Positions 5,955-27,585 of a stretch of 53,150 nt of DNA are shown here, one piece after another. The stretch is from a virus (Duplodnaviria; Heunggongvirae; Uroviricota; Caudoviricetes). The translations under genes and the position numbers were made by a program. A model generated the notes under the pieces. The model searched no databases and was not told where the DNA came from. It worked only from the letters and a program-made list of their open reading frames with translations. Each line of letters begins with the position of its first letter. Positions within the stretch are counted from its first letter, which is position 1. The stretch lies in IMG/VR virus record IMGVR_UViG_2537562195_000010. One strand, given 5' to 3'.

Positions 5955-5996
5955 GTTTTTTGGTGTATCTTGACTGGTGCTAGGTTGTTTGGTGGG

Positions 5997-6416: not shown

Positions 6417-6434
6417 AGGTAAATAATAGAGGCG

Positions 6435-6491
6435 ATTACCGCAAGGTAAACAACCCAGGGGTATTGACTTTTGTTTACCTGTGGGTATTCT
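6435..6491. promoter_or_regulatory. Putative OR operators and PR promoter for the Cro-like gene
   Basis: Operator-like palindromes 6435-6450 'ATTACCGCAAGGTAAA' and 6475-6490 'TTTACCTGTGGGTATT' with the same half-site family as OL; -35 'TTGACT' at 6465-6470 overlapping the operators; Cro-like start at 6518. Confidence 0.45.
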
Positions 6492-6517
6492 TTTGTTGTG
6501 TTTACTAAGGAGTAGTT

Positions 6518-7220: not shown

Positions 7221-7306
7221 TATTTATGCCAGACCCCTGCTGATTCTGTTGATTGGGGAATCACAGAATATCACCAGAGGATGGTTCGTCACAAGATGAG
7301 GCAATT

Positions 7307-8317: not shown

Positions 8318-8771
8318 ACAGCAAATCCGTCTGGTCTGCCGTCAGTGCATGGACCGCTGCCGGGCGGGTGAAACGTGGCCCCCGGACCTGGCTGAGTTTG
8401 TTGCGCTGATTTCGGAGAGTGGGGCAAATCCATTTGGTCTTACGGTGGATGCAGTGATGGAAGAGTACCGGCGCTGGCGCAATGAATCCTGGCGATACGA
8501 CGGGAGTGATAAATACCCGTGGCCACAGCCTGTGCTGTACCACATCTGCCTCGAAATGCGTACCAGAGGGATTGAGCGCCAGATGACGCAGGGTGAGTTA
8601 AAACGACTTGCGGAACGGCAACTGACGAAATGGGCAAAGCATGTTGGTAACGGGATGAGTGTTCCGCCAGTGCGACGACAACTGGAAGGGGCGAAACACC
8701 CGCAAGGGCCAACGCCAATTGAACGGCTGAAACAGGAATACGAACGCCGGAAGGCAGCTGGTTTTATTTGA
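8310..8771 (+). CDS. Lambda P-like replication protein (DnaB helicase loader)
   Basis: C-terminal region aligns by eye to lambda P ('WPPDLAEFVALI', 'YPWPQPVLYHICLEM', 'GELKRLAERQLTKWAKHV'). Start uncertain: 8310 (ATG overlapping the upstream stop), 8229 or 8109 are all in frame. Confidence 0.6.
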   Translation: MTEQQIRLVCRQCMDRCRAGETWPPDLAEFVALISESGANPFGLTVDAVMEEYRRWRNESWRYDGSDKYPWPQPVLYHICLEMRTRGIERQMTQGELKRLAERQLTKWAKHVGNGMSVPPVRRQLEGAKHPQGPTPIERLKQEYERRKAAGFI

Positions 8772-8786
8772 ATCTGGGAAACGATT

Positions 8787-9521
8787 TTGTCGGAGGAAAT
8801 TTTAATGGAAACCGTATTTGACGCACTGAAAGCACTGAAAAGAGCCTCTTCACAGGTAGTGGCGGCCCGCCTTGGAATCAGCCGTGAAGATGCGGTCAAC
8901 GAACTGTGGAAACTGAAGCGCCGTGGTGAAGCGGATAACAAGGGGTCGATGTGGTGGCTGACTCAGGCAGGTGAAAGTGAACCAGTGTCACCGGTACCGA
9001 AAGTGACAGCGCAAATGCTGACTGAGGCGATTGAACAACATGGCCCACAAACGGCAGATGAGCTGGCACTGATGTTCGGGATTACCTCCCGCCGGGCGAA
9101 TTCATCACTGGCCATGGCAATCAGCAAAGGGCGTCTGATTCGCGTGAATCAGGGCGGTAAATTTCGTTACTGCATACCGGGCGCTGATTTACCGGCAGAG
9201 CCGGAAGCTGCATCCGTAGCGGAAACAGATGGTAAAGCCTTTCCTCAGCCAGCAGGTGTTGCGTTACCAGTCCGGGAAACGACGACACAGGAAGAAATGA
9301 AAACAGAAATCGTGGAAGACATTGTGAAGTTACAGCCATCGGTCACCGAAACGAAAGCAGATGACCTGATTCTACCATCGCTGCATGTGGCTAACCGCGA
9401 GCTGCGCCGGGCAAAAGGTCAGGTTCAGAAGTGGGAGCGTGTCTGCGCCGCGCTGCGGGAGCTGAACAAGTGCCGGGATATTCTCCGGGATATTACCGCC
9501 ACCAGAGAACAGCAGCGGTGA
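8787..9521 (+). CDS. Hypothetical protein
   Basis: 244 aa ORF with good coding character; GTGA overlap with the next gene; no family recognised. Confidence 0.5.
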
Positions 9522-9835
9522 GTGGGTGGACGACGTGGTGCCGGGCTGAAATTCTGATACTCCGGCAGTGCGCGGGAACAATGAAGGTAAAAAGCATTGG
9601 CGCACTTATCGGACGAACTGAAGCGGCAGTGAGAACGAAGGCACGGGAGCTGGGCATCAGTATGATGTTACGTGGTGATTTTCACCCGTCGGCAAAATAT
9701 TCTCAGCGTGATATTGAGCTGGCGCGGCAACTGCATCAGAGAGGCATGCAAAGAAGGGAAATTGCCAGAAAATTAGGCATGCCGCTGCACATAGTGAATA
9801 ACTACGTTTATTTCGACAGGAGGGTTCAGGCGTGA
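9518..9835 (+). CDS. GcrA-like HTH DNA-binding protein
   Basis: GTG at 9518 overlaps the upstream stop (GTGA); '[16 protein letters not shown]...[22 protein letters not shown]' resembles the GcrA-type N-terminal HTH (W..E.L.L...G.S...IA..LG.T.NAV..K..RLG). Confidence 0.5.
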
Positions 9836-10137
9836 GGGTGAGAATTTATATCGCCGGTCCAATGACGGGATATGAAAATTTCAACCGCGAGGCATTTCAC
9901 AGAGCGGAAGAAGCACTTAAACGGGAAGGGCATACCGTTTTAAACCCGGCAGTACTTCCGGACGGGCTGACTCAGCCGCAGTACATGGATATTTGCATGG
10001 CAATGATTCGTTGTGTGGATGCGGTTTATATGCTGAATGGCTGGCAGCGGTCAGCGGGCGCTAAGGCAGAACTGGCACTGGCGGAGAAACTGGGACATGC
10101 GGTTATTTTCCAGGAGGCAACAAGTGAGCGAAATTAA
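9832..10137 (+). CDS. DUF4406 family protein (nucleoside 2-deoxyribosyltransferase-like fold)
   Basis: 101 aa; 'RIYIAGPMTGYENFNREAFHRAEEAL' N-terminus is characteristic of DUF4406; GTG start overlaps the upstream stop. Confidence 0.55.
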   Translation: MRVRIYIAGPMTGYENFNREAFHRAEEALKREGHTVLNPAVLPDGLTQPQYMDICMAMIRCVDAVYMLNGWQRSAGAKAELALAEKLGHAVIFQEATSERN

Positions 10138-10435
10138 AGAAATGCAGGTAGAACGTGATGAATATGGCTGCTGGACACATCCGGAGTATGAAAAGTTTTG
10201 CGCAGGTCGTGAATATATTTCCACCGAGGAATTTGACGCCTGGATGAAGGTAAATAATCTTCAGTGGACTATTTGCAGTATGGATGAAGATGATTTTAAT
10301 TCAGATGCAGATGACTCCGGTATTTCCGCCTGGGAACCGGAACGACCAGAGGGAGAAGGCTGGTTTATTGGCTCCATTCATGATACTGAAGATGGCCCGG
10401 TTTGTGTCTGGTTGCGAAACAAGGTAATGGCGTAG
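10124..10435 (+). CDS. Hypothetical acidic protein
   Basis: In-frame GTG at 10124 preceded by AGGAGG (6 nt spacing); the ORF-track start at 10037 lies inside the upstream gene and is probably an artefact. Confidence 0.45.
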   Translation: MSEIKEMQVERDEYGCWTHPEYEKFCAGREYISTEEFDAWMKVNNLQWTICSMDEDDFNSDADDSGISAWEPERPEGEGWFIGSIHDTEDGPVCVWLRNKVMA

Positions 10436-10762
10436 ATGAAAATAGAAAAAGCGAAAGTACAGCTCAGGATAATGCTTGCTGGTCCGGCTGCGAGTTATAT
10501 GACACATTCGCCAGCCATAAAAAAGGTCCTTGATGAACTGGAGGCCAAAGACAAGCGCATTGCAGAACTGGAGGCAAGGGAAGTCCAGTTACCGGTTGGT
10601 TATGAACTTCGCTATGGACACCCGATAAATGCTGATGAGCGCCATATTATGATACCTAAGGAAAATGGCAGCTGGCTTTATCTGGCTGACTTAGAACATG
10701 CACTACGTGTTGCTGGCATTCGCATCAAAGGAGAGCGATGTGGAAATAAAACCAGAAGATGA
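10436..10762 (+). CDS. Hypothetical protein
   Basis: 108 aa; ATG immediately follows the upstream stop (TAGATG). Confidence 0.5.
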   Translation: MKIEKAKVQLRIMLAGPAASYMTHSPAIKKVLDELEAKDKRIAELEAREVQLPVGYELRYGHPINADERHIMIPKENGSWLYLADLEHALRVAGIRIKGERCGNKTRR

Positions 10763-11096
10763 GTTAAGTAATATTGTTTTATTTCCGGTAAAAGAGGATG
10801 ACCCACGTAATCAGGTTAATTTTCTTTATGAGCCATCGGAAAGACCATACTGCCATCACGCCTCTGTCCGGGTTGACGAAAAAGAGCGTCAGGTCCGCTG
10901 TAAAATCTGCGGTTCAGTTGTGGAGCCGTTTGACTGGATGCTCTCTGTGGCGAAAAGAGAAACCAGACTGGCAGATGATGTAAAGCTATTGCGCCAGGAG
11001 GAACAGGAAAGGCGAAAAAATATAGAAAAGTTAATTCAGATTGAGCGTAACGCGAAAGCGCGGATACGCAGGGCGTCAAAATCCAGAACTGAATAA
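10740..11096 (+). CDS. Hypothetical protein with possible Cys4 zinc-ribbon
   Basis: GTG at 10740 with AGGAGA RBS; 'CHHASVRVDEKERQVRCKICGSVVEPFDW' has C..H...C..C spacing. Confidence 0.45.
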   Translation: MEIKPEDELSNIVLFPVKEDDPRNQVNFLYEPSERPYCHHASVRVDEKERQVRCKICGSVVEPFDWMLSVAKRETRLADDVKLLRQEEQERRKNIEKLIQIERNAKARIRRASKSRTE

Positions 11097-11191
11097 TTAA
11101 ATTCAGCACTGTTAAAAATTTAATCCTTAACCGGAGGGATTCCTGCACCCTCAGAACATAAGGAGACCGCCTGAAAGGGTGGTAATGAAAA

Positions 11192-11563
11192 ATGACTGAA
11201 TTAACCAAAGAGCAATTAATCAAGGAAGCCAAATTAAAAATAGCGGTTGCGAACTGTTACCCTAATTCAGAGATGGCCAGGGTAGAGGGAGAGCTATTCA
11301 AAATTGCACTGGCATCGCTGGAAGCAGAACCGATAGCGTGGGAATGCGGTGAAAACATAATCCTGTTTAACCCTGACACAGTTGAAGCATACGCAAAACG
11401 TGCGGAAATATCACCTAAACCACTATTCTCCGCGCCGCCAGCGCTGGTAGTGCCTGATAAGTTGCCGCGTGAATACAGAAACGGTTGGCCTCTTGCGTAT
11501 AGTGATTATGCTGAAGGCTGGAACGACTGCCGCGAAGCCATGCTTCAGGGAGATAAATCATGA
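11192..11563 (+). CDS. Hypothetical protein
   Basis: 123 aa ORF; ATGA overlap with the next gene. Confidence 0.5.
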   Translation: MTELTKEQLIKEAKLKIAVANCYPNSEMARVEGELFKIALASLEAEPIAWECGENIILFNPDTVEAYAKRAEISPKPLFSAPPALVVPDKLPREYRNGWPLAYSDYAEGWNDCREAMLQGDKS

Positions 11564-11913
11564 TTAATCGTATCAAGCTGGAGCACATCCTCGAATATGC
11601 CAGGCAGCAGAGGCATATTGGTCAGCATTGTAAAATTCCACCAGGAGATATGGTTGAAATCATGGAGATTGCCATGCGCAAGGCTGGCAATTCTCCGGTA
11701 ACTCCGGATGGTTGGATAAGCTGTAGTGAGCGAATGCCGCCAGTTGGTGTTGATGTACAACTGTTTGTGTCCTGCACGGGTGAACAGTTTACAGGTTTTA
11801 ACCTGGATAATACGGGTGACTTCCAGTATGCGCAGTGTTTCGGTGCGCCCATCGTGTGTGAAGCCACACACTGGATGCCGCTACCAGAACCGCCGAAGGA
11901 GGTGCGCCAATGA
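11560..11913 (+). CDS. DUF551 family phage protein
   Basis: C-terminal 'GWISCSERMPP...HWMPLPEPPKE' matches the DUF551 signature (W...E.LP ... WMPLPEPP). Confidence 0.6.
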   Translation: MINRIKLEHILEYARQQRHIGQHCKIPPGDMVEIMEIAMRKAGNSPVTPDGWISCSERMPPVGVDVQLFVSCTGEQFTGFNLDNTGDFQYAQCFGAPIVCEATHWMPLPEPPKEVRQ

Positions 11914-11993
11914 GCTGGCCTGAAGCCTTCTCAAATGTTGGTATTGCAATGGCGGTGGCGCTGGTTGTGTATTCGATTTGCCGCTGGGGATAA
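11910..11993 (+). CDS. Small hydrophobic peptide (27 aa), translationally coupled
   Basis: 'MSWPEAFSNVGIAMAVALVVYSICRWG'; ATG overlaps the DUF551 stop (ATGA); AAGGAGG 7 nt upstream; followed by a terminator. Below the 60-aa ORF-track threshold. Confidence 0.3.
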   Translation: MSWPEAFSNVGIAMAVALVVYSICRWG

Positions 11994-12006
11994 ATTGCTG
12001 AAAAAA

Positions 12007-12042
12007 GATCCCGACACACACATGAGTCGGGATCTTTGATTT
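12007..12042 (+). terminator. Rho-independent terminator
   Basis: Hairpin 'GATCCCGAC-(loop)-GTCGGGATC' followed by 'TTTGATTT'. Confidence 0.6.
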
Positions 12043-12117
12043 ATATATCCTACGAATCCGCCAGTAAGAGAGGGGGCGGACGGTTTATTCTAATACTGGA
12101 ATTATGTGGGGAAAAGT

Positions 12118-12417
12118 TTATAAGAAATCGGTTTCATAACTTTGTCCGCCATGATAAATACCTGCGATAAAGACTTTATTGCCATCAACGGCAAAAGCAA
12201 TAATCGTTCTGTGGCGGAAGTGAGTTACCCGCATTCCCTGTCGAATATCATCGCGTTTATTGCCCCGATGCGGGAATGTGGAAAACCCATCAAGATAATC
12301 AAGAAGTGCATTGGCATAATTGTCAGCAATGACGCTCCCTGCTTTCTCCGTTATATATCTGTGCAGGTTGATTATCTGCTGTTCGGCCTCAGGAGTAATG
12401 ATGACTTCATATGTCAT
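12118..12417 (-). CDS. ParE/RelE-superfamily toxin (type II TA toxin)
   Basis: 99 aa from 'MTYEVIITPEAEQQI...'; size, sequence character and position directly after a ParD-like gene fit ParE-family toxins. Confidence 0.7.
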   Translation of the reverse strand: MTYEVIITPEAEQQIINLHRYITEKAGSVIADNYANALLDYLDGFSTFPHRGNKRDDIRQGMRVTHFRHRTIIAFAVDGNKVFIAGIYHGGQSYETDFL

Positions 12418-12422
12418 GCAGA

Positions 12423-12680
12423 TTACTTCCCGGCTCGAATCGCGGCGCGAACCTGTGCAATGGAGCGTCCGTTGTTTGGGTTTTCGCGGATAGAATCGAG
12501 AGATGGGGCGGCTGAATGCGTTAACCACGCTTCGATTGCTTTATCGCGCTCATTCAGTGCGCGAAGCCCTTCACGAATGACCTCACTTTCTGAAGCATAG
12601 GCACCGGAAGCCACACGGGCGCGCACCATGTCAGCCATCTCGTTAGTTAATGTAACGCTGAATTGTTGGGTTGTACGCAT
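12423..12680 (-). CDS. ParD-like RHH antitoxin
   Basis: 85 aa from 'MRTTQQFSVTLTNEMADMVRARVASGAYASESEVIREGLRAL'; ribbon-helix-helix antitoxin pattern; 5-nt gap to the toxin gene. Confidence 0.7.
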   Translation of the reverse strand: MRTTQQFSVTLTNEMADMVRARVASGAYASESEVIREGLRALNERDKAIEAWLTHSAAPSLDSIRENPNNGRSIAQVRAAIRAGK

Positions 12681-12761
12681 GGTAAACCTCACGGAGTAGG
12701 ATAGAACACTATTCGATGATAGCACGCTTCCTGTTGACGACAACAGAAATCAGAGACAATA

Positions 12762-13094
12762 TTGCCGCACGCCAGCCTGAACAACTGGCACCTGCTGCGC
12801 CAGCAGAGACAACCGATGGCGCACGATACCAAATTACACAATTCGGATAACTCCGCCGCCCCTGCCAGCAGGCACGGGCGGCGTTCTCATGCATTCAAAT
12901 CTGACTGGTTCCAGCATGACCCATGCACTGAAGAACAGGCCGAATGGCTGATCCAGTGCTACCGCAGACGTGGTTACGAGTTTCAGAAAGATCTCAGCTT
13001 CGATCGTCGTCACTGGATAATCTCCGTCAGGCTCCCTTATTCCGAACGCCCACCGCGTCCGTCCCGCACATTCCAGCAGCGCATCTGGAGGTAA
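12762..13094 (+). CDS. Hypothetical protein (weak call)
   Basis: 110 aa ORF between the TA pair and the DUF968 gene; start codon uncertain (TTG at 12762 or ATG at 12816). Confidence 0.3.
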   Translation: MPHASLNNWHLLRQQRQPMAHDTKLHNSDNSAAPASRHGRRSHAFKSDWFQHDPCTEEQAEWLIQCYRRRGYEFQKDLSFDRRHWIISVRLPYSERPPRPSRTFQQRIWR

Positions 13095-14157: not shown

Positions 14158-14520
14158 ATGCTCATAGAGTTGGTTTTACCTTACCCGCCGACGGTGAACA
14201 CTTACTGGCGACGCCGTGGCAGCACATATTTTGTATCAAAAGCCGGGGAGCGTTATCGCCGGGCAGTGGCGCTTATTGTTCGCCAGCAGCGACTGAAATT
14301 AAGCCTGTCCGGACGGCTGGCAATAAAAATTATTGCAGAGCCACCGGATAAGCGCCGCCGTGACCTGGACAATATTCTGAAAGCACCGCTGGATGCGCTG
14401 ACGCACGCGGGGTTGTTAATGGACGATGAGCAGTTTGATGAAATCAATATTGTACGTGGCAAGCCAGTATCTGGTGGACGGCTGGAGATAAGAATTACAG
14501 AGGTGGGTGTGCATGAATAA
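14158..14520 (+). CDS. rusA: Crossover junction endodeoxyribonuclease RusA (Holliday junction resolvase)
   Basis: 120 aa; 'PDKRRRDLDNILKAPLDALTHAGLLMDDEQ...GGRLEIRITE' matches the RusA catalytic region. Confidence 0.9.
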   Translation: MLIELVLPYPPTVNTYWRRRGSTYFVSKAGERYRRAVALIVRQQRLKLSLSGRLAIKIIAEPPDKRRRDLDNILKAPLDALTHAGLLMDDEQFDEINIVRGKPVSGGRLEIRITEVGVHE

Positions 14521-15178
14521 CCAGTATTTACAGTTTGTTCGTGAGCAACTCATGATTGCCACTGCGGATCTTAGTGGGTCGACAAAAGGCCAGCTGGAAG
14601 TCTGGCAGGAAAATGCCCTGTTCGATACAGGGCGTTGCAGACGCAAAAAAATTCGTTACCGCGATGAGGTAACCGGAAAAATGATCACGCGGGATAATCC
14701 CCCGATCCCGGGTAAACAATCACTGGCGAAAGGCTCATCAATTGCCCTGGTCAGTCCGGTTGAGTTTTCGACATCATCATGGCGACGCGCCGTTCTGTCT
14801 CTTGAAGAACATCATAAAGCCTGGCTGCTGTGGTGTTACAGCGGTAGCATTTGCTGGGAGCATCAGATCGCGATAACGCAGTGGGCGTGGACTGAATTTA
14901 ATGCTCAATCCGGTACCAGAAAAATTGCAGGAAAAACTCTGGTGCGCCTGAAGACGTTGATCTGGTTGGCGGCGCAGGCGGTAAAAGCTGAGCTTTTTGG
15001 TGGGGAAGGTTACGAATACCAGGAACTGGCGTTACTGGTGGGAGTAACAACCAAAAACTGGTCCAAGACATTTACTGGTCACTGGGTTGCAATGAAACAC
15101 ATTTTTCATCGGCTGGATAGTGAAGCTTTATTGTTGGTGGAGGGAACACGTTCAAAACAAAAGGCGGCATTTTCATAG
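14513..15178 (+). CDS. Late-gene antitermination protein Q
   Basis: 221 aa; phage antiterminator Q family by sequence character and position (after rusA, before the late promoter/terminator); ATG 14513 with GAGGTG RBS, overlapping the rusA stop. Confidence 0.8.
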   Translation: MNNQYLQFVREQLMIATADLSGSTKGQLEVWQENALFDTGRCRRKKIRYRDEVTGKMITRDNPPIPGKQSLAKGSSIALVSPVEFSTSSWRRAVLSLEEHHKAWLLWCYSGSICWEHQIAITQWAWTEFNAQSGTRKIAGKTLVRLKTLIWLAAQAVKAELFGGEGYEYQELALLVGVTTKNWSKTFTGHWVAMKHIFHRLDSEALLLVEGTRSKQKAAFS

Positions 15179-15185
15179 CAAAGTA

Positions 15186-15214
15186 TTGCAAAAGTAGATA
15201 AAAAGGCATATATT
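15186..15214 (+). promoter_or_regulatory. Putative late promoter PR' (TTGCAA-17-TATATT)
   Basis: Seen directly: -35 TTGCAA (15186-15191), 17-bp spacer, -10 TATATT (15209-15214), directly downstream of Q. Confidence 0.5.
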
Positions 15215-15431: not shown

Positions 15432-16145
15432 ATGGATGACAGTGCTCTGCTCAGAAACTCTTCACTTTTTGTTGCTTATATGGGCTGTCTCGGATGGGGG
15501 AGCGCTTATTTCTATGGATGGGGTACTTCATTTTACTATGGCTTTCCATGGTGGGTTGTCGGGGCTGGTGTCGATGATGTAGCACGAAGTTTGTTTTATG
15601 CTGTGACAGTTATTGTTATATTCCTTATTGGATGGGGAGTTGGTATTGTTTTCTTTTTGGGCATAAAACAAAAGCGCAATATACAAAATTTGAGTTTTAT
15701 CCGGCTTTTTCTCGCGATATTGCTGCTTTTTATTCCACCTGTTCTGGAGTTTTCTGTAATTCATCAGCATGTTGAGCCAGATGTACTGATTTTCTGTGTT
15801 CTTGCTGCCTTTGCAATCACGCTTTTTGTCAGGTCTGGAAGAAGACTTGTTTCAGTCAAATGTTTTTCGGAAATGTCTGTTATTCGCCATCACCGAATTG
15901 AGTTCATGATGGCTGGGTTTATGATTTATTTCTGGGCATTCTCTCTTATTGCCGGTTGGTACAAACCACAGTTTAAGAGGGAATATCAGACGGTCCACTA
16001 TGAGAATGTATGGTATTACATTATTGCGCGCTATGATGATCGTCTGGTGTTATCGAAATCATACAGGAGTGGGGGTAAGAAATTCGTTATATTTAATAGC
16101 GGAAATATTAATGATTTTGAAATTAATACTGTCAGAGTACGTTAA
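15432..16145 (+). CDS. Hypothetical multi-pass membrane protein (AT-rich moron)
   Basis: 237 aa; at least four hydrophobic helices (e.g. 'LFYAVTVIVIFLIGWGVGIVFFLGI') plus a C-terminal soluble ~70 aa; markedly AT-rich relative to flanking phage genes; no clear RBS. Confidence 0.5.
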   Translation: MDDSALLRNSSLFVAYMGCLGWGSAYFYGWGTSFYYGFPWWVVGAGVDDVARSLFYAVTVIVIFLIGWGVGIVFFLGIKQKRNIQNLSFIRLFLAILLLFIPPVLEFSVIHQHVEPDVLIFCVLAAFAITLFVRSGRRLVSVKCFSEMSVIRHHRIEFMMAGFMIYFWAFSLIAGWYKPQFKREYQTVHYENVWYYIIARYDDRLVLSKSYRSGGKKFVIFNSGNINDFEINTVRVR

Positions 16146-16318: not shown

Positions 16319-16516
16319 ATGCTGAAACAGCAGGATATGACAGAAACCGCCAGAGCAGTTTTTAATGAATTAAGTGCCACCGAACCGGCGACAGTCGGGG
16401 AGATTGCACAGAATACGTACCTTTCACGCGAACGCTGCCAGCTAATACTGACCCAGCTTGTTATGGCGGGTCTGGCAGACTATCAGTTTGGTTGTTACAG
16501 ACGCCTTCAGTCCTGA
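16319..16516 (+). CDS. Small putative DNA-binding protein (HTH-like)
   Basis: 66 aa from 'MLKQQDMTETARAVFNELSATEPATVGEIAQNTYLSRERCQLILTQL'; ends inside a terminator hairpin. Confidence 0.45.
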   Translation: MLKQQDMTETARAVFNELSATEPATVGEIAQNTYLSRERCQLILTQLVMAGLADYQFGCYRRLQS

Positions 16517-16528
16517 AGGCTTTTTTAT
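16503..16528 (+). terminator. Rho-independent terminator
   Basis: 'GCCTTCAG-TC-CTGAAGGC' stem followed by TTTTTTATTT. Confidence 0.5.
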
Positions 16529-16667: not shown

Positions 16668-17726
16668 ATGTTTAATACTGTAAAAATATCCAGTTGTGAG
16701 TTAATCAACGCCGACTGCCTGGAATTTATCCGGTCGTTACCCGAAAATTCTGTTGACCTGATAGTCACGGACCCGCCGTACTTTAAAGTGAAGCCTGAGG
16801 GCTGGGATAACCAGTGGACGGGTGATGAGGATTACCTGAAATGGCTGGACCAGTGTCTGGCGCAGTTCTGGCGGGTGCTGAAACCTGCCGGAAGTCTTTA
16901 CCTGTTCCGTGGCCATCGCCTGGCGTCTGACATTGAAATCATGATGCGTGAACGCTTCAGTGTGCTGAACCATATTATCTGGGCGAAGCCGTCCGGACGC
17001 TGGAACGGGTGCAACAAGGAAAGCCTGAGGGCGTATTTCCCCGCCACAGAGCGCATTCTGTTCGCGGAACACTATCAGGGGCCGTATCGCCCGAAAGATG
17101 ATGGCTATGAGGCGAAGGGCAGGGCACTGAAACAGCATGTGATGGCTCCGCTGATTGCTTACTTTCGTGATGCGCGTGCTGCCCTGGGGATAACGGCAAA
17201 ACAGATAGTGGATGCCACAGGAAAGAAAAACATGGTGTCGCACTGGTTCAGTGCCAGTCAGTGGCAGCTACCGAACGAAAGCGATTATCTGAAATTACAG
17301 GCGCTGTTTGCCCGGGTGGCAGAAGAGAAGCATCAGCGGGGTGAACTGGAAAAGCCCCACCACCAGCTGCTGGAGACGTATACTTCACTGAACCGGCAGT
17401 ATGCGGAACTGCAGAGTGAATATAAGCATCTGCGGCGGTATTTTGGCGTGACGGCGCAGGTGCCGTACACGGATGTGTGGACGCATAAACCGGTGCAGTA
17501 CTATCCCGGGAAACATCCGTGCGAAAAACCGGCAGAAATGCTGCAGCAGATAATCAGTGCGAGCAGTCGTCCGGGTGACCTGGTTGCAGATTTCTTCATG
17601 GGGTCGGGTTCGACAGTCAAAGCCGCGATGGCGCTGGGGCGTCGTGCAACTGGCGTTGAGCTGGAGACTGAACGTTTTGAGCAGACGGTCAGGGAAGTAC
17701 AGGATTTAGTCAGTCAGAATGGATGA
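16668..17726 (+). CDS. DNA methyltransferase (beta-class N6-adenine/N4-cytosine, DPPY motif)
   Basis: 352 aa; motif IV 'DLIVTDPPY' near the N-terminus and motif I 'DFFMGSGST' near the C-terminus (beta-class order); no adjacent restriction endonuclease, so likely an orphan phage methylase. Confidence 0.85.
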   Translation: MFNTVKISSCELINADCLEFIRSLPENSVDLIVTDPPYFKVKPEGWDNQWTGDEDYLKWLDQCLAQFWRVLKPAGSLYLFRGHRLASDIEIMMRERFSVLNHIIWAKPSGRWNGCNKESLRAYFPATERILFAEHYQGPYRPKDDGYEAKGRALKQHVMAPLIAYFRDARAALGITAKQIVDATGKKNMVSHWFSASQWQLPNESDYLKLQALFARVAEEKHQRGELEKPHHQLLETYTSLNRQYAELQSEYKHLRRYFGVTAQVPYTDVWTHKPVQYYPGKHPCEKPAEMLQQIISASSRPGDLVADFFMGSGSTVKAAMALGRRATGVELETERFEQTVREVQDLVSQNG

Positions 17727-17766
17727 TATTGCAGGATTAGTTACGTACCGTTATTATCATGCGCCC

Positions 17767-17842
17767 GGCCCTTTAGCTCAGTGGTGAGAGCGAGCGACTC
17801 ATAATCGCCAGGTCGCTGGTTCAAATCCAGCAAGGGCCACCA
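17767..17842 (+). tRNA. tRNA with CAU anticodon (Met or lysidine-modified Ile2)
   Basis: Hand-folded cloverleaf: acceptor GGCCCTT/AAGGGCC, D-arm GCTC...GAGC, anticodon loop CTCATAA, T-arm GCTGG-TTCAAAT-CCAGC, encoded CCA. Confidence 0.85.
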
Positions 17843-17850
17843 TATCCATA

Positions 17851-17927
17851 CCGCCATTAGCTCATCGGGATAGAGCGCCAGCCTTCGAAGCTGGCTGCGC
17901 GGGGTTCGAGTCCTCGATGGCGGTCCA
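17851..17927 (+). tRNA. tRNA-Arg (anticodon UCG)
   Basis: Hand-folded cloverleaf: acceptor CCGCCAT/ATGGCGG, anticodon stem CCAGC/GCTGG with loop CTTCGAA, T-loop TTCGAGT, encoded CCA. Confidence 0.85.
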
Positions 17928-18205
17928 TTATCAGCATTATGCGTTGTTGGTTCTGATGAGTGAATCATTGTCTTTTGAGCAACAGGCTATCATATAAGAT
18001 AGCCTCAGACTTCCTTGTTTATTCTCGCCGGATGCTTCGTAGATATTTGCAGGCATCTGTATGCAGGGGTATTATTGCGGCATATATCATCCGGAAAAAT
18101 AAAAACTACATGCTGATCCGGAGATGATAGTTACAAGTCCTCCCGGATCCCGCATATTTACTATATTTTATAGATAATTGTTCTTGTTAATATGGAGATG
18201 GATAA

Positions 18206-18634
18206 ATGTATTGCCGTGCTGTACCGGTTCTTGTTTTGATATTAGCCAGTCTGACAACTGGCTGCACAAAAGATGTATCGACAAATAATTATGATGCTTC
18301 TCTGTATCACTCAGATAAATTAATAAAGTCACAAAATTTGAGCTCATCGGAACGTAGCCCTGATGCCAGTGAAGAAATCCGGCAGTATGCCATTCAGGTC
18401 AGGAAAGCCATAGAAGAACAGTTAAAGGATGCGAGTAAGTATTCAGGAAAAGAGTGTTCACTGAGAATGTATATGGCCCCGAATGGTCTTCTGCTACAGG
18501 TTAAAAGAGAAAGCGGTGATCCCGATTTATGTCGTGAAGCGATGAATGCAGTAAAGAATGCTGATATACCATCACCACCGTCTTCAGGAGTATATAAAGC
18601 ATTTAGAAATGGCGTGCTGGATTTTAAACTCTGA
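18206..18634 (+). CDS. Lipoprotein with TolA C-terminal (domain III)-like domain
   Basis: 142 aa; signal peptide with lipobox-like 'LTTGC'; C-terminal 'YAIQVRKAIEEQLKDASKYSGKECSLRMYMAPNGLLLQVKRESGDPDLCREAMNAVKNADIPSPPSSGVYKAFRNGVLDFKL' closely parallels the E. coli TolA C-terminus as I recall it (...GDPALC...KIPKPPSQAVYEVFKNAPLDFKP); AT-rich moron. Confidence 0.7.
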   Translation: MYCRAVPVLVLILASLTTGCTKDVSTNNYDASLYHSDKLIKSQNLSSSERSPDASEEIRQYAIQVRKAIEEQLKDASKYSGKECSLRMYMAPNGLLLQVKRESGDPDLCREAMNAVKNADIPSPPSSGVYKAFRNGVLDFKL

Positions 18635-18700: not shown

Positions 18701-18950
18701 GTGTTAAATCCCTCACAATTCAGTAAGTTGACAGTTGCCTGTCAGACTGAGCATTTGTTAAAAAAATTTCGCATGGTGAATCCCCCTGTGCGGAGGGGCG
18801 ACTGGTGAACGGTATGATCTCTTTGATGATCGTAAGCGAGAATACGCGGGTTTGGTGTCACCGGGCTGAACTCACCGGGAGGCACCCGGCACCATGCTCA
18901 TGGTGATACAGAAATGCGGCTTCAGCCCCTCTCCGGAGGGGCTTTCTTAT
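18701..18950 (+). repeat. Structured repeat unit A (family of five; possible sRNA gene or promoter-terminator cassette)
   Basis: Contains the conserved blocks 'GTTAAATCCCTCACA', 'TTGTTAAAAAAA', hairpin 'GGTGAATCCCCCTGTGCGGAGGGGC', hairpin 'CACCGGGAGGCACCCGGCACC' and terminator 'GCCCCTC-TCCG-GAGGGGC-TTTCTT' (18925-18948). Confidence 0.7.
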
Positions 18951-19110
18951 GGACAAAAAAAGCCCGCGCTGGGAGACGCGGGCGGCAAGGAATAAACAAT
19001 AAAACGTGAAGTAATACTTCAACTGGCGAATAATACCCGACAGTAATCACTCTGCGCAATAGCGTGGCCTTTTTCGAATTGCGGGCTGTAGTCTCCCTTC
19101 TGCTGGGTGT

Positions 19111-19266
19111 CCTGGTTGCAGATTTCTTCATGGGGTAGGGTTCGGCAGTTAAAGCAGCGATGGCGCTGGGGCGTCGTGCAACTGGCGTTGAGCTGGATAC
19201 CGGGCGTTTTGAACAGACTGCGCAGGAAATCAGGGATGTATTTAGCGGGAGCGGTTTGCAGAAGTA
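19111..19266 (+). pseudogene. Remnant of a DNA methyltransferase 3' end (duplicate of the C-terminus of the 16668..17726 gene)
   Basis: Near-identical to 17578-17726 ('CCTGGTTGCAGATTTCTTCATGGGG...GGCGTCGTGCAACTGGCGTTGAGCTGGA...') but with an in-frame TAG ('FFMG*') and no upstream gene body. Confidence 0.6.
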
Positions 19267-19330: not shown

Positions 19331-20056
19331 ATGGATGTTGCCTGCTCTGTGGTCCTGATTCGCTATCCGATAGATATTTTTCTTGAAAAAGAAAAAGTTT
19401 CACTCGATGCCGGAAGTGTTATGCTTGTTGCCAGAAATATAAGAGGGCTTTTCTGTGCTTATGCCGACAGAGTGAAAATGGCAGATATAAGTAACAGCGT
19501 CGTCAATCAGTATCTGGAAAGGGAGTGTGAACTGACGGAGTATACACCGACAAAAATTCCTCTTTATTTGATGTCTGATATTTACAATACGGAACTGGCG
19601 GAGGCTTTAATAACCCAGCATAGTGAATCCAGTGATACTTTGAAGGATTTCTCTGTTATAACCGCATTTTCATGTATCTCCTTATTTGCAACAGACAGAC
19701 GTCTGCCATTATTTTTGTCCGGTGCTGTAAATAATATCAGCTGTAAAGTAAGGGCTATAATTCAGACCGACATATCGGCAGGCTGGATGCTTGGTGTGAT
19801 TGCATTACAATTGCATATGAGCGAAAGCTTGTTGAAGCGAAAACTTAAGGATGAAGGTTATAGCTTTAGTCGGTTGTTGCTGGAGGAGCGAATGCGTGTT
19901 GCTGTTAATCTTGTATGTTTCCAGCGAGAGTGTGGACAAGCGATAGCGGAAAAATGTGGTTACTCAAGTAAGTCCTACTTCATTTCTGTATTTCACCAGT
20001 ATTATGGTGCACCACCTGAGAGCTATGCATATTTGCAGAAAGCAGACGTTATCTGA
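19331..20056 (+). CDS. AraC/XylS-family transcriptional regulator (prophage-encoded)
   Basis: 241 aa; C-terminal double-HTH region '...LHMSESLLKRKLKDEGYSFSRLLLEERMRVAVNLV...IAEKCGYSSKSYFISVFHQYYGAPP' typical of AraC-type regulators; AT-rich island. Confidence 0.75.
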   Translation: MDVACSVVLIRYPIDIFLEKEKVSLDAGSVMLVARNIRGLFCAYADRVKMADISNSVVNQYLERECELTEYTPTKIPLYLMSDIYNTELAEALITQHSESSDTLKDFSVITAFSCISLFATDRRLPLFLSGAVNNISCKVRAIIQTDISAGWMLGVIALQLHMSESLLKRKLKDEGYSFSRLLLEERMRVAVNLVCFQRECGQAIAEKCGYSSKSYFISVFHQYYGAPPESYAYLQKADVI

Positions 20057-20671: not shown

Positions 20672-20907
20672 ATGTTAAATGACTCACAATTCGGTTGATG
20701 GGCTATTGTCTGATCGATGGAAGTCTTGTAAAAACGAGCCAGCATAGTGAATCCCCCTGTGCGGAGGGGCGTCTGACATGGTCTCCATAGCGATGGTCAC
20801 AATACGCAGATTCAGTAGTCAGGCTGAATCTACCGGGAGGCACCCGGCACTATGCTGCTTATGGTGTATACATAGCGATCGGCCCCTCTCCGGAGGGGCT
20901 TTTTTTG
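20672..20907 (+). repeat. Structured repeat unit B
   Basis: Same conserved blocks as unit A ('GTTAAATGACTCACA', 'AGTGAATCCCCCTGTGCGGAGGGGC', 'TACCGGGAGGCACCCGGCAC', terminator 'GGCCCCTCTCCGGAGGGGCTTTTTTT'). Confidence 0.7.
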
Positions 20908-20929
20908 TGCGGGAAAAGGCTGTGTTGTT

Positions 20930-21175
20930 AAGTGTTAAATTCCTCACAGTTCAGATGGTTGATGCTTGCCTGTCTGAGGGGGAGTTGTTAAAAAAGTTCT
21001 GCATGGTGAATCCCCCTGTGCGGAGGGGCGACTGGTATGATTTGCATCTTTTCTGTTGTAGGCAATGCAAACGCGGGTTCAGGGACACCAGACTGGACTC
21101 ACCGGGAGGCACCCGGCACCATGTTCATGATGATACAGATACGCAGTGTCAGCCCCTCTCCTGAGGGGCTTTTTT
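20930..21175 (+). repeat. Structured repeat unit C
   Basis: Same conserved blocks; terminator 'AGCCCCTCTCCTGAGGGGCTTTTTT' at 21151-21175; variable central segment. Confidence 0.7.
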
Positions 21176-21202
21176 ATGCAGGAAAAACGCTGTGTTGTGA
21201 AA

Positions 21203-21436
21203 TGTTAAATTCCTCACAGTTCAGATGGTTGATGCTTGCCTGTCTTACGGGGAGTTGTTAAAAAAGTTCTGCATGGTGAATCCCCCTGAGCGGAGGGGCA
21301 TATCAGCGCAGGTGTTTCTACTCTATCCTTTCTGTGCGGGTTCAGGTGCTGATACTGAACTCACCGGGAGGCACCCGGCATCATGCATATGGTTAACAGA
21401 CAAGTAGCGAAGCCCCTCTCCGGAGGGGCTTTTTTA
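21203..21436 (+). repeat. Structured repeat unit D
   Basis: Same conserved blocks; terminator at 21411-21436. Confidence 0.7.
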
Positions 21437-21462
21437 TGCAGGGAAAAGGCTGTGTTGTGAAA

Positions 21463-21690
21463 TGTTAAATTCCTCACAATTCATGAGGTTGATGATTGTC
21501 TGATTGATGAGGAGTTTGTTAAAAAAAACGGGCATGGTGAATCCCCCTGTGCGGAGGGGTGATATCGTATCATTTCCTGTGTGGCCGACTGATATCACGG
21601 ACATTTGTTCACCGGGAGGCACCCGGCACCATGCAGTATACAGAGATTAGGCATACATCCAGGCTCCTCATCGCAGGAGCCTTTTTACAT
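21463..21690 (+). repeat. Structured repeat unit E
   Basis: Same conserved 5' blocks; central segment forms its own inverted repeat ('GTGATATCG...CGACTGATATCAC'); different terminator hairpin 'GGCTCCT-CATCGC-AGGAGCC-TTTTTA'. Confidence 0.65.
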
Positions 21691-21918
21691 GTAAAAAAAA
21701 CCGCTCCTGGGAAGAGCGGTTGGCAAGGAAGCAAGGAATAAATAACAAAACGTGAAGTAATTTATTCAGCACCCTAATAATACCTTAGAGTAATCACCTT
21801 GCGCAACTGTAAGGGCGTATTTCTTTTTTGCGGGCTGTTTTTCTGTGTGACTTTTGTGTTTCCGGAGGTCAGCCCGTGCCTTCTCTGACTCAGAACATTA
21901 TCCCGGCCGGGAGGATTC

Positions 21919-23883
21919 ATGGCATTTAAACACTACGATGTGGTCAGGGCGGCATCGCCGTCAGACCTTGCTGAACGACTGACACAAAAACTGAAGGAGG
22001 GCTGGCAGCCATTTGGCAGTCCGGTGGCCATCACGCCTTATACCCTGATGCAGGCCATTGCGGCGGAAGGTGATGTCACCACACCAGTGGCGGTGACCGG
22101 TAATGAGGGTAAGGCGGTGGCTGTCAGTGCCACCAGCGACCCGGAGTATTACTTTGTTGTGGTTCTGGCAGGGCAGTCAAATGGCATGTCGTATGGTGAA
22201 GGTCTTCCGCTGCCGGAGACATATGACCGTCCGGAGCCGCGCATTAAGCAGCTGGCGCGCCGCAGTACGGTGACACCGGGCGGTGCAGCATGCAAATATA
22301 ACGACATCATTCCGGCGGACCATTGTCTGCATGATGTGCAGGACATGAGCCGCCTTAACCATCCGAAAGCGGACCTGTCAAAGGGGCAGTACGGAACCGT
22401 GGGGCAGGGGCTGCATATTGCCAAAAAATTGCTGCCGTTTATACCGGCGAATGCGGGCATTCTGCTGGTTCCGTGCTGTCGTGGTGGTTCAGCGTTCACC
22501 ACCGGAGCTGATGGCACATACAGTGACGCGAGTGGTGCCTCGGAGAATTCAACCCGCTGGGGTGTTGACAAGCCGCTGTACAAGGACCTTATCGGTCGAA
22601 CAAAAGCAGCACTGAAGAAGAACCCGAAAAATGTGCTGTTTGCCGTGGTGTGGATGCAGGGGGAATTTGATTTTGGCGGTACGCCGGTAAATCACGCAGC
22701 ACAGTTTGGTGCGCTGGTTGATAAATTCCGTGCAGACCTGACGGATATGGCCGGTCAGTGCGTTGGTGGCTCTGCTGGCGGTGTTCCCTGGATATGTGGA
22801 GATACGACGTATTTCTGGAAGCAGAAGAACGAATCCACGTACCAGACGGTGTACGGCAGCTATAAAAACAAAACGGAAAAGAATATCCATTTCGTACCGT
22901 TCATGACGGATGAGAACGGGGTGAATGTGCCGACGAACAAACCGGAAGAAGACCCGGACATTCCGGGTATCGGGTATTACGGTTCGAAATGGCGTGACAG
23001 CTCAGCCACCTGGACGTCACAGGACAGGGCGAGCCATTTCAGCACCTGGGCACGCCGGGGGATTATTTCCGACCGTCTGGCAACGGCGATTCTGGTGCAC
23101 GCCGGGAGAACCGCTGAATTCATTACCGGAAAACAGCCTGATATGGTGAGGCCCACCGTACCTTCCGGTGAAGGTCCGGAGAGAGAGGCGGAAGCCCCGG
23201 CCAGTAAGCGTACCCTGATGAGTCTGCTGGCATCCGGCGAAGACCTGGCATCACAGGGCTGGCGCTATTATCACAAACCGGCGGGCGGAGACAGTGTTAA
23301 CAAAAACATTGCTGAAGCGGTGGTCAGTGATGCGGGGGCTACGGGAGGTAAGGCTCTGCAACTGAACAAACCGGAAAACCACATCTGGTTTCTGGAGCAT
23401 GATGCAGCCGGACAGGGGGCGGAGTTACTGAAGAAGGGCGGACGTGTGAGCGTACGGTTTAAGTTGCCGGGTTCACTGGTGCCGAATCAGTTTGCCCTGG
23501 GCATTTACTGGCAGTTGTCGTCCCTGCCGGAGGGGGTGACGCTGTCAGGAGAAGGTAACGATATGCTGATGTCCTTCTTTCTGCAGACGGATACGACGAA
23601 CCTGAACGCGATGCATCACAGGAAGCCGAATGCGAAGCTGGATACATTCGGGGTCTTTGATAACGGATGGCACACGCTGGCTTTTGAGTTTGCCGGAAAC
23701 AACAGCATTCAGGTGACACCAGTACTGGATGAGAAACGGGGAGCGGCGTTCACACTGGTGAAGTCACCGGCATCGGGGGTGGCGGACAAACTGCAACTGA
23801 CCGATATATCAAAATCGGCGACGTATACGCTGCTGATTGACAGCATTGCGGTGGAAGTGAACAGCACAGACACTGCGGCATGA
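21919..23883 (+). CDS. nanS: NanS-p-like sialate O-acetylesterase (DUF1737 N-terminus plus SASA/DUF303 esterase domain)
   Basis: 654 aa; N-terminal 'MAFKHYDVVRAASPSDLAERLTQKLKEGW' and esterase region 'VVVLAGQSNGMSYGEG...AVVWMQGEFD' match the NanS-p family encoded downstream of stx in Shiga-toxin phages. Confidence 0.8.
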   Translation: MAFKHYDVVRAASPSDLAERLTQKLKEGWQPFGSPVAITPYTLMQAIAAEGDVTTPVAVTGNEGKAVAVSATSDPEYYFVVVLAGQSNGMSYGEGLPLPETYDRPEPRIKQLARRSTVTPGGAACKYNDIIPADHCLHDVQDMSRLNHPKADLSKGQYGTVGQGLHIAKKLLPFIPANAGILLVPCCRGGSAFTTGADGTYSDASGASENSTRWGVDKPLYKDLIGRTKAALKKNPKNVLFAVVWMQGEFDFGGTPVNHAAQFGALVDKFRADLTDMAGQCVGGSAGGVPWICGDTTYFWKQKNESTYQTVYGSYKNKTEKNIHFVPFMTDENGVNVPTNKPEEDPDIPGIGYYGSKWRDSSATWTSQDRASHFSTWARRGIISDRLATAILVHAGRTAEFITGKQPDMVRPTVPSGEGPEREAEAPASKRTLMSLLASGEDLASQGWRYYHKPAGGDSVNKNIAEAVVSDAGATGGKALQLNKPENHIWFLEHDAAGQGAELLKKGGRVSVRFKLPGSLVPNQFALGIYWQLSSLPEGVTLSGEGNDMLMSFFLQTDTTNLNAMHHRKPNAKLDTFGVFDNGWHTLAFEFAGNNSIQVTPVLDEKRGAAFTLVKSPASGVADKLQLTDISKSATYTLLIDSIAVEVNSTDTAA

Positions 23884-24779: not shown

Positions 24780-25571
24780 ATGAATAAACAATACGAACTG
24801 GTTGTTAAAGGGATAAATATTTACCCGGATAAGATTACTGTTACTGTGGCGCTGGAAACTGGTGGGTATACGTCACTGTTGTTGCCAAATGTGGTGATTG
24901 ATCTTGATCGTGTTGAAGGTGCCCCGCTGGAGTTTTACGAAGCTGAGGCGAAAAAGAAGGCGAAGCAGTTTTTCATGGATATTGCTGCCGGGTTATGTGA
25001 AGGGAACGAACCGTTGCCGGAAAAGCGCCTCTGTTCAGAAGAGCGGTATACCATACAAATTAACAATGCATATAACACGATACAGTCAGAAAAAGATGAT
25101 ATCGAATCACGCATTGAAAAACTGGAGAACAGCGTCGTTGAACTGAATAAAAAACTGTCGGTGCAGATCCCTTCCGAAGGTGAAAAAAAACGCCGTGATG
25201 AGCAGTTCGCGGCGTTTTACGATTATTGCCGGAAAGTGATGAGCAGAAATCTCGCAGAGTGTTTCCGTATTCAAAAAAACAGAGAGCGCTCTGCAAATAG
25301 TGAGATTCTGGATAATTTTTTAAAGGGGACGCATCTCGCCAGTGATTGTTTCATTGCTCATTCTTTTGGTGGCTTTCATGAGGCCATCAAACATGATGTT
25401 GAGAGAAGTCCAGGTATCCTCTGTTCCATTCCCGTAAGCATCGAAATAGACACAAATACGATAACCGGTGAACTCGTTACCGCCGGAGTCGGTATATTCC
25501 GTCATGAGGGGAACGATGCCAAAGGTTCCTTTACAAAAATCGGGCCGTTCTTTCTGAAGGTAGAGCGATAG
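24780..25571 (+). CDS. Hypothetical protein inserted between holin and endolysin (coiled-coil centre)
   Basis: 263 aa ORF starting 3 nt after the pinholin stop with a GGGGAGAG RBS; central predicted coiled coil; last ~250 nt overlap a convergent minus-strand ORF in the complementary register, so the true 3' end is uncertain. Confidence 0.45.
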   Translation: MNKQYELVVKGINIYPDKITVTVALETGGYTSLLLPNVVIDLDRVEGAPLEFYEAEAKKKAKQFFMDIAAGLCEGNEPLPEKRLCSEERYTIQINNAYNTIQSEKDDIESRIEKLENSVVELNKKLSVQIPSEGEKKRRDEQFAAFYDYCRKVMSRNLAECFRIQKNRERSANSEILDNFLKGTHLASDCFIAHSFGGFHEAIKHDVERSPGILCSIPVSIEIDTNTITGELVTAGVGIFRHEGNDAKGSFTKIGPFFLKVER

Positions 25572-26889: not shown

Positions 26890-27585
26890 ATGAAAGAGAT
26901 GATTTCTGTCGATCATGAAATATCCATGAGTAGTCTGGATTTTCTGAATAACATTATTAATCCAGCCCGGGCAGAAGCCGGAGAAGTCCCTCATGAACCG
27001 CGTAAGTTTCTTGCAAAAATTGAGGATGAACTTGAGCTTGATGGAACCGGAAAAAAATTCCGGTTAAACAATAACCAGACAAGAACGGCATACTATGATC
27101 TGGATTTTGACCAGATGATGCTCGTTGGCATGAGGGAGTCAAAGGCCGTTCGTCGTTCTGTGCTGGCAAGACTCAAAGCGATGCATGGTATTCAGATCCC
27201 CCGGACTTTACCTGAGGCGTTGCGATTTGCGGCAAAACTGGCAGAACAGAAAGCAGTGCTGGAAAATCAACTGGCAATAGCAGCGCCGAAGGCTGAATTT
27301 GTTGATAACTATGTTGAAGCATCTGGTCTGATGGGATTCCGGGAAGTTGCTAAGTTACTCGGTATCAAAGAAACCGATTTCCGGCTGTTTTTGTTGGAGA
27401 ACGGAATAATGTATCGCCTCGCTGGAAAAATGACGCCTTACTCGCATCACCTGGATGCGGGGCGGTTTAGCGTGAAAACGGGCGAGGCGGGCAATGGTCA
27501 TGCTTTTACGCAGGTTAAATTCACCCCAAAAGGTGTTCAGTGGATTGCTGGTCTGCTTGCTGCATGGAGAGCTACCGCAGCATGA
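26890..27585 (+). CDS. Antirepressor (KilA-C domain protein)
   Basis: 231 aa; C-terminal region '...FVDNYVEASGLMGFREVAKLLGIKETDFRLFLLENGIMYR...' is the KilA-C/Ant pattern; located in the lysis cassette as in Shiga-toxin phages. Confidence 0.7.
   Translation: MKEMISVDHEISMSSLDFLNNIINPARAEAGEVPHEPRKFLAKIEDELELDGTGKKFRLNNNQTRTAYYDLDFDQMMLVGMRESKAVRRSVLARLKAMHGIQIPRTLPEALRFAAKLAEQKAVLENQLAIAAPKAEFVDNYVEASGLMGFREVAKLLGIKETDFRLFLLENGIMYRLAGKMTPYSHHLDAGRFSVKTGEAGNGHAFTQVKFTPKGVQWIAGLLAAWRATAA

Follow-up and report, generated by a model that had tools for sequence, protein, structure and literature searches.

A probable two-gene form of the ileZ-argN-argO tRNA operon in an Stx-type lambdoid prophage, with a predicted lysidine-type tRNA-Ile2 and a tRNA-Arg(UCG)

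In the genome of the Shiga toxin (Stx) 2a phage F765, three consecutive tRNA genes have been annotated, ileZ (tRNA-Ile), argN (tRNA-Arg) and argO (tRNA-Arg), with stx2A and stx2B coming after them, and mention has been made of a 'pS tRNA promoter' upstream of tRNA-Ile in the O157 Stx2 phages (PMC2858043). The subject of the present analysis is a pair of tRNA genes with the anticodons CAU and UCG, located at positions 17767-17927 of a stretch of 53,150 nucleotides (the window, i.e., the whole stretch analysed) that constitutes the IMG/VR virus record IMGVR_UViG_2537562195_000010. The window is a lambdoid prophage, the left end of which corresponds to a prophage integrated beside ompW in RM10042, a strain of Escherichia coli that produces Shiga toxin (STEC). 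Judged by its sequence, the cluster is the already known ileZ-argN(-argO) of the Stx-type lambdoid prophages, in a minority form without argO and stx. It is very probable that the pair represents the first two genes of the ileZ-argN-argO operon in the late-regulatory region of such prophages, supplying the codons that are overused by the prophage. A segment of 291 bp around the tRNAs matches 284 phage records with 95-99% identity, nearly all from phages of the Stx-converting kind, and the same segment is found in 3058 of the 5426 complete E. coli genomes, at up to 12 places per genome.

Exactly two tRNA genes were found by ARAGORN in the window, both on the + strand, and both were accepted by the Rfam family RF00005 (gathering score 29 bits; E values computed for the whole window):
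17767-17842, + strand: ileZ, predicted tRNA-Ile2 gene (ARAGORN anticodon cat at position 34; RF00005 72.5 bits, E 5e-14)
17851-17927, + strand: argN, tRNA-Arg gene (ARAGORN anticodon tcg at position 35; RF00005 55.1 bits, E 3e-9)
16668-17726, + strand: N6/N4 DNA methyltransferase gene, 352 aa (PF01555, E 1.4e-42; RefSeq label DNA-methyltransferase)
The first tRNA gene follows the stop codon of the methylase open reading frame (ORF) after 41 nt, the mature lengths are 76 nt for ileZ and 77 nt for argN, with a spacer of 8 nt between them, and the CCA end is encoded in both (ACCA in the CAU tRNA and UCCA in the UCG tRNA). Both tRNA genes are genuine, far beyond chance, and the two predictors agree with the initial annotation, which had placed two tRNAs with these anticodons and encoded CCA at the same coordinates downstream of the methyltransferase. 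The minimum free energy (MFE) folding alone gave a cloverleaf for the UCG tRNA and none for the CAU tRNA; the covariance model is the relevant test of the fold, and the MFE failure on ileZ is uninformative. The minus-strand ORF at 17741-17968 and a minus-strand Rfam match to Plastid-ycf2 (36 bits, with a cut-off of 65.7) were rejected as antisense artefacts of the tRNAs.

The window copy of ileZ and the ileZ annotated in F765 are 100% identical, and the RefSeq label for the identical gene is tRNA-Ile. Its identity amounts to 92.1% with ileY and 89.5% with ileX of K-12, as compared with 67.5% for the elongator metT/U and 59.7% for the initiator metZ/V. The gene carries A73, U12:A23, C29:G41, A37 and A38, which are the identity elements of the isoleucyl-tRNA synthetase (IleRS), and four of the five pairs of its anticodon stem are the same as in the host tRNA-Ile2, the pair 27:43 being A.C in place of G.U. 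The acceptor stem (GGCCCUU...AAGGGCC) contains the pairs C4:G69 and C5:G68, as in ileX/ileY, where metT has U4:A69 and A5:U68, and these two pairs have been established as the EcTilS determinants separating tRNA-Ile2 from tRNA-Met (PMC11947777). The resemblance of ileZ to ileY/ileX and not to metT, together with the EcTilS pairs, therefore points to a lysidine-type tRNA-Ile2 predicted to read AUA, with both modification and charging deduced from these elements, and the corresponding suggestion of the initial annotation is borne out. The reading of the CAU gene as an elongator (or initiator) tRNA-Met, merely adding AUG-decoding capacity, could draw on its call as tRNA-Met by ARAGORN, on the same label for the identical gene in many phage GenBank records, and on its designation as tRNA-Met in PMC7946995; however, such labels appear because the anticodon is read literally, and dedicated models splitting Ile2 from Met have been introduced in tRNAscan-SE 2 (PMC8450103). 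The features of an initiator are also absent from ileZ, which has G1-C72 and the anticodon stem AGCGA with no run of three G-C pairs. A plain tRNA-Met is, as far as the identity elements predict, excluded for practical purposes, and this reading of the gene is hardly credible.

The second gene, argN, differs from the annotated argN of F765 by 1 nt, a D-loop base. The identity nucleotides of the arginyl-tRNA synthetase (ArgRS) in E. coli are A20, C35 and G/U36, and argN has A20 (within the D-loop AUCGGGAUA), C35 and G36. The only Arg anticodons among the K-12 tRNA genes retrieved were ACG, CCG, UCU and CCU, and argN is therefore a decoder that the host lacks; its U34 should read CGA and CGG, with the exact range depending on the U34 modification. 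The identity of argN to the host Arg tRNAs is only 49-68%, and it has C1-G72, U73 and U15/G48 where the host Arg tRNAs have G1-C72, A/G73 and G15-C48. The donor was sought with the exact 21-nt argN anticodon arm in one genome per species, across 185,579 species, which gave 10 matches, six of them examined with ARAGORN. No tRNA gene was found by ARAGORN in five of the six (Acetobacteraceae and similar, Thioalkalivibrio), and the sixth was a 2.9-kb contig of a metagenome-assembled genome with the same three-tRNA cluster; the donor lineage of argN was thus not found among the six examined of the 10 arm matches in this one-genome-per-species scan.

The variation of the cluster across prophages was followed by a pattern scan of IMG/VR, which gave 120 loci, 116 of them CAU-UCG clusters. 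The ileZ copy is identical to that of the window in 95 of the 116 clusters, while argN occurs in 25 distinct full-length variants, that of the window being present in 12 loci. The nucleotide diversity (pi) in 107 ileZ-argN clusters (IMG/VR loci L035-L154) is 0.0035 for ileZ, 0.047 for argN and 0.021 for argO; i.e., the polymorphism of argN exceeds that of ileZ about 13-fold, at a distance of 8 nt. The unusual C1-G72, U73 and U15 are kept in 25 of 25 argN variants, all of which are also reported with U15/G48, and 99.2% of the stem cells are paired across the variants. The anticodon stem-loop is invariant, except for its outermost pair (C-G to U.G, column 28), and the remaining polymorphisms fall in the D, variable and T regions, the commoner of them being loop changes or changes between GC and GU pairs, with the exception of a C11.A25 mismatch in the D-stem at 10 loci. 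The covariation test on the 25 argN variants revealed no double compensatory changes and nothing above shuffles, a result that is compatible with the fold and neither proves nor questions it. True compensatory changes were found in argO at 51:65 (C-G to G-C) and in one ileZ variant at 31:39 (A-U to G-C).

The pair is preceded by a candidate promoter, and a further promoter-like site lies behind gene Q:
17729-17757, + strand: candidate sigma-70 promoter of the tRNA operon (-35 TTGCAG at 17729-17734, 17-nt spacer, -10 TATTAT at 17752-17757)
15186-15214, + strand: promoter-like site TTGCAA-17-TATATT, candidate PR', 8 nt past the Q stop codon
The -10 hexamer is separated from the mature 5' end of ileZ by the GC-rich 9-nt stretch CATGCGCCC. 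Among 30 distinct upstream contexts of the IMG/VR clusters, the -10 hexamer never changes and the -35 retains its TTG throughout, whereas variation is seen in the spacer and the flanks, and the hexamers are conserved also in contexts without the methylase gene or with a terminator hairpin directly upstream. Such conservation amid varying flanks looks like the signature of a real promoter, in agreement with the published pS tRNA promoter; a generic promoter scan missed it because the -35 matches in only three of six positions. The intact argO is followed in most loci by a conserved hairpin, GGCTCGCTTTTGCGGGCC, with a T-run, which suggests that the normal unit is composed of the promoter, three tRNAs and the terminator; this operon terminator (GGCTCGCTTTTGCGGGCC and T-run) is absent from the window. 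The candidate PR' and the position of the tRNAs on the late-gene strand suggest additional read-through into them after induction. A strong terminator-like hairpin with a T-run is also seen at 16503-16520 (+), 1.3 kb downstream of the candidate PR', and an AT-rich ORF of 237 aa with unknown function (15432-16145, GC 0.39) lies between the two.

The codon usage of 59 curated prophage genes (13,905 codons) was compared with a reference of only 38 annotated K-12 genes (13,790 codons), as follows, in codons per 1000 with the odds ratio (OR):
AUA: prophage 10.1, K-12 sample 2.5, OR 4.1, p 2e-16
CGG: prophage 13.8, K-12 sample 3.2, OR 4.4, p 3e-23
CGA: prophage 5.0, K-12 sample 2.3, OR 2.2, p 2e-4
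AGA: prophage 6.7, K-12 sample 1.4, OR 4.9, p 6e-13
AGG: prophage 6.1, K-12 sample 0.7, OR 9.4, p 1e-16
The rarity of CGA and CGG in E. coli, on which the initial annotation had relied, is thus seen in the K-12 sample. The genome-wide values for K-12 are about 4.4 (AUA), 5.5 (CGG), 3.6 (CGA), 2.1 (AGA) and 1.2 (AGG) per 1000, and their use would shrink the odds ratios and not reverse them. The excess of rare codons spans the whole prophage and not the morons alone. The density of AUA is at its highest among the accessory genes that lie between Q and the lysis genes, at 15.4 per 1000 (OR 1.66 relative to all other prophage genes, p 0.026), with 8 AUA in the 241 codons of an ORF for an AraC-type regulator and 4 in the 142 codons of a TolA-like ORF (4 of its 6 Ile codons), and stx2A, the usual neighbour of the operon, has 15 AUA in 319 codons. 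CGG, on the contrary, has its minimum in these accessory genes (7.7 per 1000, OR 0.52) and its maximum in the head and tail genes, which are GC-rich (18.1 per 1000, OR 1.8, p 8e-5). The proposal that the tRNAs support the translation of the nearby AT-rich morons therefore fits ileZ, with its AUA, and does not fit argN.

From these observations, the following course may be put forward. The sigma-70 promoter, whose end lies about 9 nt before ileZ, would transcribe the pair in lysogens, and after induction the Q-modified read-through from PR' would add to this transcription, with both tRNAs presumably released by the host RNases. The host TilS would convert C34 of ileZ to lysidine, which would lead to charging by IleRS and the reading of AUA, as its identity elements predict, and argN would be charged by ArgRS and read CGA and CGG by U34. 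The added tRNA supply would then match codons that are used 2- to 4-fold more in the prophage than in the core E. coli genes, AUA mostly in the AT-rich accessory genes and CGG mostly in the head and tail genes. In the lineage of the window, a rearrangement would have removed the 3' half of argO, the terminator and the stx region, and placed the gene of a TolA-domain lipoprotein there.

The traces of such a rearrangement directly follow argN:
17941-17983, + strand: relic of argO (tRNA-Arg UCU), 43 nt, recognized by alignments
17983-18004, + strand: perfect 8-bp hairpin AGGCTATC-ATATAA-GATAGCCT, located at the junction, lacking an immediately following T-run and not a terminator by the scan
18206-18634, + strand: lipoprotein of 142 aa with a TolA C-terminal domain, in the stx slot (PF06519, E 3.9e-23; lipobox LTTGC)
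argO truncations: window 17941-17983 and IMG/VR loci L058, L068, L104 and L118, of two types, a degenerate relic and a clean deletion
The relic retains the first 8 nt of argO unchanged, followed by a scrambled D-arm and an anticodon arm that is identical at 14 of 16 positions, with TTT in place of the anticodon TCT; nothing is left of the T-arm, the 3' acceptor strand or the operon terminator. No tRNA model matched the relic even at E<=10, while the colinear match of the anticodon arm is specific to argO (shuffle p 0.009), the other tRNAs being unmatched. By BLAST, the homology to Stx2 phages weakens after nt 8 of argO, ends at about 17982 (argO nt ~43) and resumes at 18713, in an STnc100 element just past the position of stxB, and therefore the 3' half of argO, the terminator and stxAB were replaced by about 730 bp. 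The TolA-domain lipoprotein in this place belongs to PHROG 5772 (function unknown) and could serve in the periplasm as a decoy for filamentous phages or for Tol-dependent colicins; it is mislabelled in RefSeq as 'cell envelope integrity protein TolA'.

The junction of the window is present in 123 of the 5426 complete E. coli genomes. Among the 116 IMG/VR clusters, argO is present in 99, and a third tRNA is lacking in 13; the relic of the window type occurs in eight of these 13, with a TolA-like gene in all seven that have enough downstream flank, and four have lost stx by a clean deletion of independent origin, which likewise begins at argO nt ~42. At least two independent truncations of argO have thus occurred, both at nt ~42-43, which belong to the 3' strand of the anticodon stem, and both accompanied by the loss of stx, and the breakpoint may be a recombination hot spot on the left border of the stx cassette. 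A stx2A-like gene is absent within 2.5 kb in 71 of the 87 three-tRNA clusters with enough flank, and the operon is therefore general to the prophage type and not confined to the toxin phages alone.

Several points weigh against the view of the pair as operon genes that supply overused codons. Everything beyond the gene calls is inferred. In ileZ, an A27.C43 mismatch stands where ileX/ileY have G.U at 27:43, and changes in the anticodon stem can impair EcTilS (PMC11947777). In argN, a purine discriminator (A73/G73) was not found, U73 being present in the window and in all 25 variants, and together with C1-G72 and U15/G48, which are equally unlike the K-12 Arg tRNAs, it indicates that argN may be a poor substrate of ArgRS or RNase P, though U73 is a minor determinant that lowers the expected charging efficiency and does not exclude the Arg identity. 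The K-12 reference set of the codon comparison is confined to 38 genes; argO was lost despite the frequent AGA and AGG, and the codon match is therefore not obligatory. Moreover, the lambdoid phages with and without these tRNAs have been found equal in codon adaptation (PMC4631060).

Other explanations were weighed as well. According to one of them, the tRNAs matter little for translation and are hitch-hiking mosaic remnants, whose main evolutionary role is to provide a conserved junction for recombination on the left border of the exchangeable stx/moron cassette. The two independent truncations of argO at nearly the same nucleotide with the concomitant loss of stx, the break of Stx2-phage homology inside argO with its resumption right past the stxB position, the varying downstream cargo (most three-tRNA clusters lacking a nearby stx2A-like gene) and the tolerated loss of argO are all consistent with it, as are the defective appearance of the prophage, with an in-frame stop in J, and the redundancy of a single copy in the genomes with the identical tRNA locus, which hold 2-5 matching places. 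Yet ileZ is nearly invariant across diverse prophages while its flanks and the spacer vary, the promoter hexamers and the terminator are conserved, and the stem changes keep pairing, all of which argues for purifying selection on expressed and folded tRNAs; this explanation is, as a whole, improbable, and the junction role and tRNA function are not mutually exclusive. Somewhat less unlikely, and still doubtful, is a combined proposal, in which argO and the tRNA operon would form a recurrent recombination junction at the left edge of an exchangeable stx/moron cassette, and the terminator loss would let the constitutive tRNA promoter read through ileZ-argN into the TolA-domain gene, making an expression platform for a lysogenic-conversion gene, and, separately, argN would be under diversifying selection, for example by tRNA-Arg-targeting nucleases, rather than a plain codon supplier.

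The tRNAs, and argN in particular, might also serve as a counter-defence, replacing or outlasting host tRNAs cut by anticodon nucleases (colicin D, with tRNA-Arg as its target, is an example) or by retron- or PARIS-type effectors, rather than for codon compensation. The evasion of tRNA-targeting defences by phage tRNAs has been shown or proposed elsewhere (PMC10264068, PMC11555353), and for argN the anticodon absent from the host, the identity of only 60-68% to host Arg tRNAs, the unusual and conserved C1-G72, U73 and U15/G48, and the 13-fold higher polymorphism, which could reflect an arms race, would be in accordance with it. However, the anticodon loop of ileZ is the same as in the host ileX/Y, with no escape mutations, the anticodon stem-loop of argN barely varies, the polymorphisms of argN lying outside the region on which anticodon nucleases act, the match in codon usage is strong, and no nuclease known for these isoacceptors is linked to the locus, which makes a counter-defence very unlikely. 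The membership of the pair in the ileZ-argN-argO operon, with the supply of overused codons, is thus preferred.

Within the prophage, the gene order is Q (14513-15178), two small ORFs, the methylase, ileZ, argN, the 142-aa ORF, the STnc100 copies, the AraC-type ORF, the nanS-p-like esterase and the lysis genes; Q, the methylase, the tRNAs, the STnc100 copy at 18742 and the esterase are all on the late-gene strand. The features beyond the stx slot are:
18742-18954, 20713-20908, 20972-21181, 21243-21439 and 21503-21692, + strand: five copies of the small RNA (sRNA) STnc100 (RF02076, 119-172 bits)
19331-20056, + strand: AT-rich ORF for an AraC-type regulator (PF12833), after a second methylase fragment
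21919-23883, + strand: nanS-p-like esterase gene, on the late-gene strand
The presence of five STnc100 copies within 3 kb deserves attention; the last four are arranged in tandem, in units of about 260 bp, immediately upstream of the nanS-p-like esterase. The STnc100 family is known and related to the PasD sRNAs (bioRxiv 10.64898/2026.05.13.724894). A second copy of the 3' fragment of the methylase gene at 19105-19218 (+), 91% identical to 17573-17686, suggests a duplicated or mosaic module of the type 'methylase-moron-sRNA'.

In relation to RM10042, the window is mosaic in the early region, with no homology at ~5770-9120 and ~9700-12800, and the genes in these nonhomologous stretches were taken from long ORFs. 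The tail-tip gene J (48135-51821, +) contains an in-frame TAG at codon 244 (48864-48866), from which the prophage is probably defective for adsorption, and the adjoining ORF of K (C40 peptidase) differs in frame from the RM10042 copy. Further cargo consists of a gene of an OmpC-type porin inserted between the tail genes M and L (43854-45017, +; GC 0.45), a Hok/Gef toxin gene close to the genes of the tail fibre (52020-52160, +) and dicB in the early left region (4174-4362, -). The lysis region comprises two extra ORFs, one of 263 aa with unknown function (24780-25571, +; PHROG 2091) and one for an Ant-like anti-repressor of 231 aa (26890-27585, +; PHROG 63, E 3e-58).

The cluster as such belongs to textbook Stx-phage genomics, and its confirmation adds little. 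For annotation, the CAU gene should be given as tRNA-Ile2 and not as tRNA-Met, as in many phage records. The tRNAs are better regarded as phage cargo with a candidate promoter of their own than as remnants of an integration site, the latter being how a recent sRNA survey took the tRNA matches near the Pas/STnc100 sRNAs. The codon match differs between the two tRNAs, with AUA in the AT-rich accessory genes and CGG in the structural genes. By its truncated argO and its TolA-domain gene, the prophage can be recognized as a stx-negative relative of the Stx phages, which is relevant for the reading of STEC genomes. The points that still stand out as curious are the high polymorphism of argN and its odd acceptor end, the recurrent argO breakpoint and the possible read-through from the tRNA promoter into the TolA-domain gene.

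The open-access literature searched by the gene names ileZ, argN and argO gave nothing useful. The closest system is the ileZ-argN-argO operon of the Stx-converting lambdoid phages (F765 AP012534, PA2, 933W-type), with the same order, strand and promoter hexamers, a short ileZ-argN spacer (8 nt in the window and 9 nt in F765), and a shared position downstream of Q/methylase and upstream of the stx slot and STnc100/nanS-p. The difference is that three tRNAs (CAU, UCG and UCU) are present there, followed by the terminator and stxAB, whereas the window has only the first two intact, and the TolA-domain lipoprotein gene with no terminator. The K-12 ileX/ileY are like ileZ in the anticodon loop CUCAUAA, C4:G69, C5:G68, A73, U12:A23, C29:G41, the length of 76 nt and the CCA end; in relation to ileY, ileZ has six substitutions, among them the A27.C43 mismatch for the G27.U43 wobble and changes in the D-loop, at position 26, in the variable loop and in the T-loop, and it is phage-borne, with a candidate promoter of its own. 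The host tRNA-Arg genes (argQ/V/Y/Z with ACG, argX with CCG, argU with UCU and argW with CCU) share with argN the 77-nt cloverleaf, A20, C35, a purine at 37 and the 5-nt variable loop, but UCG is absent from K-12, and the identity stays at 49-68%, with differences at 1-72, 73 and 15/48. Finally, the tRNA-Ile(CAU) of T4-like and other virulent coliphages, usually annotated as tRNA-Met, has about 80% full-length identity to ileZ, and both would be phage-borne decoders of AUA, the former being located in large tRNA arrays, in contrast to the 2-3 gene operon of a temperate lambdoid prophage to which ileZ belongs.

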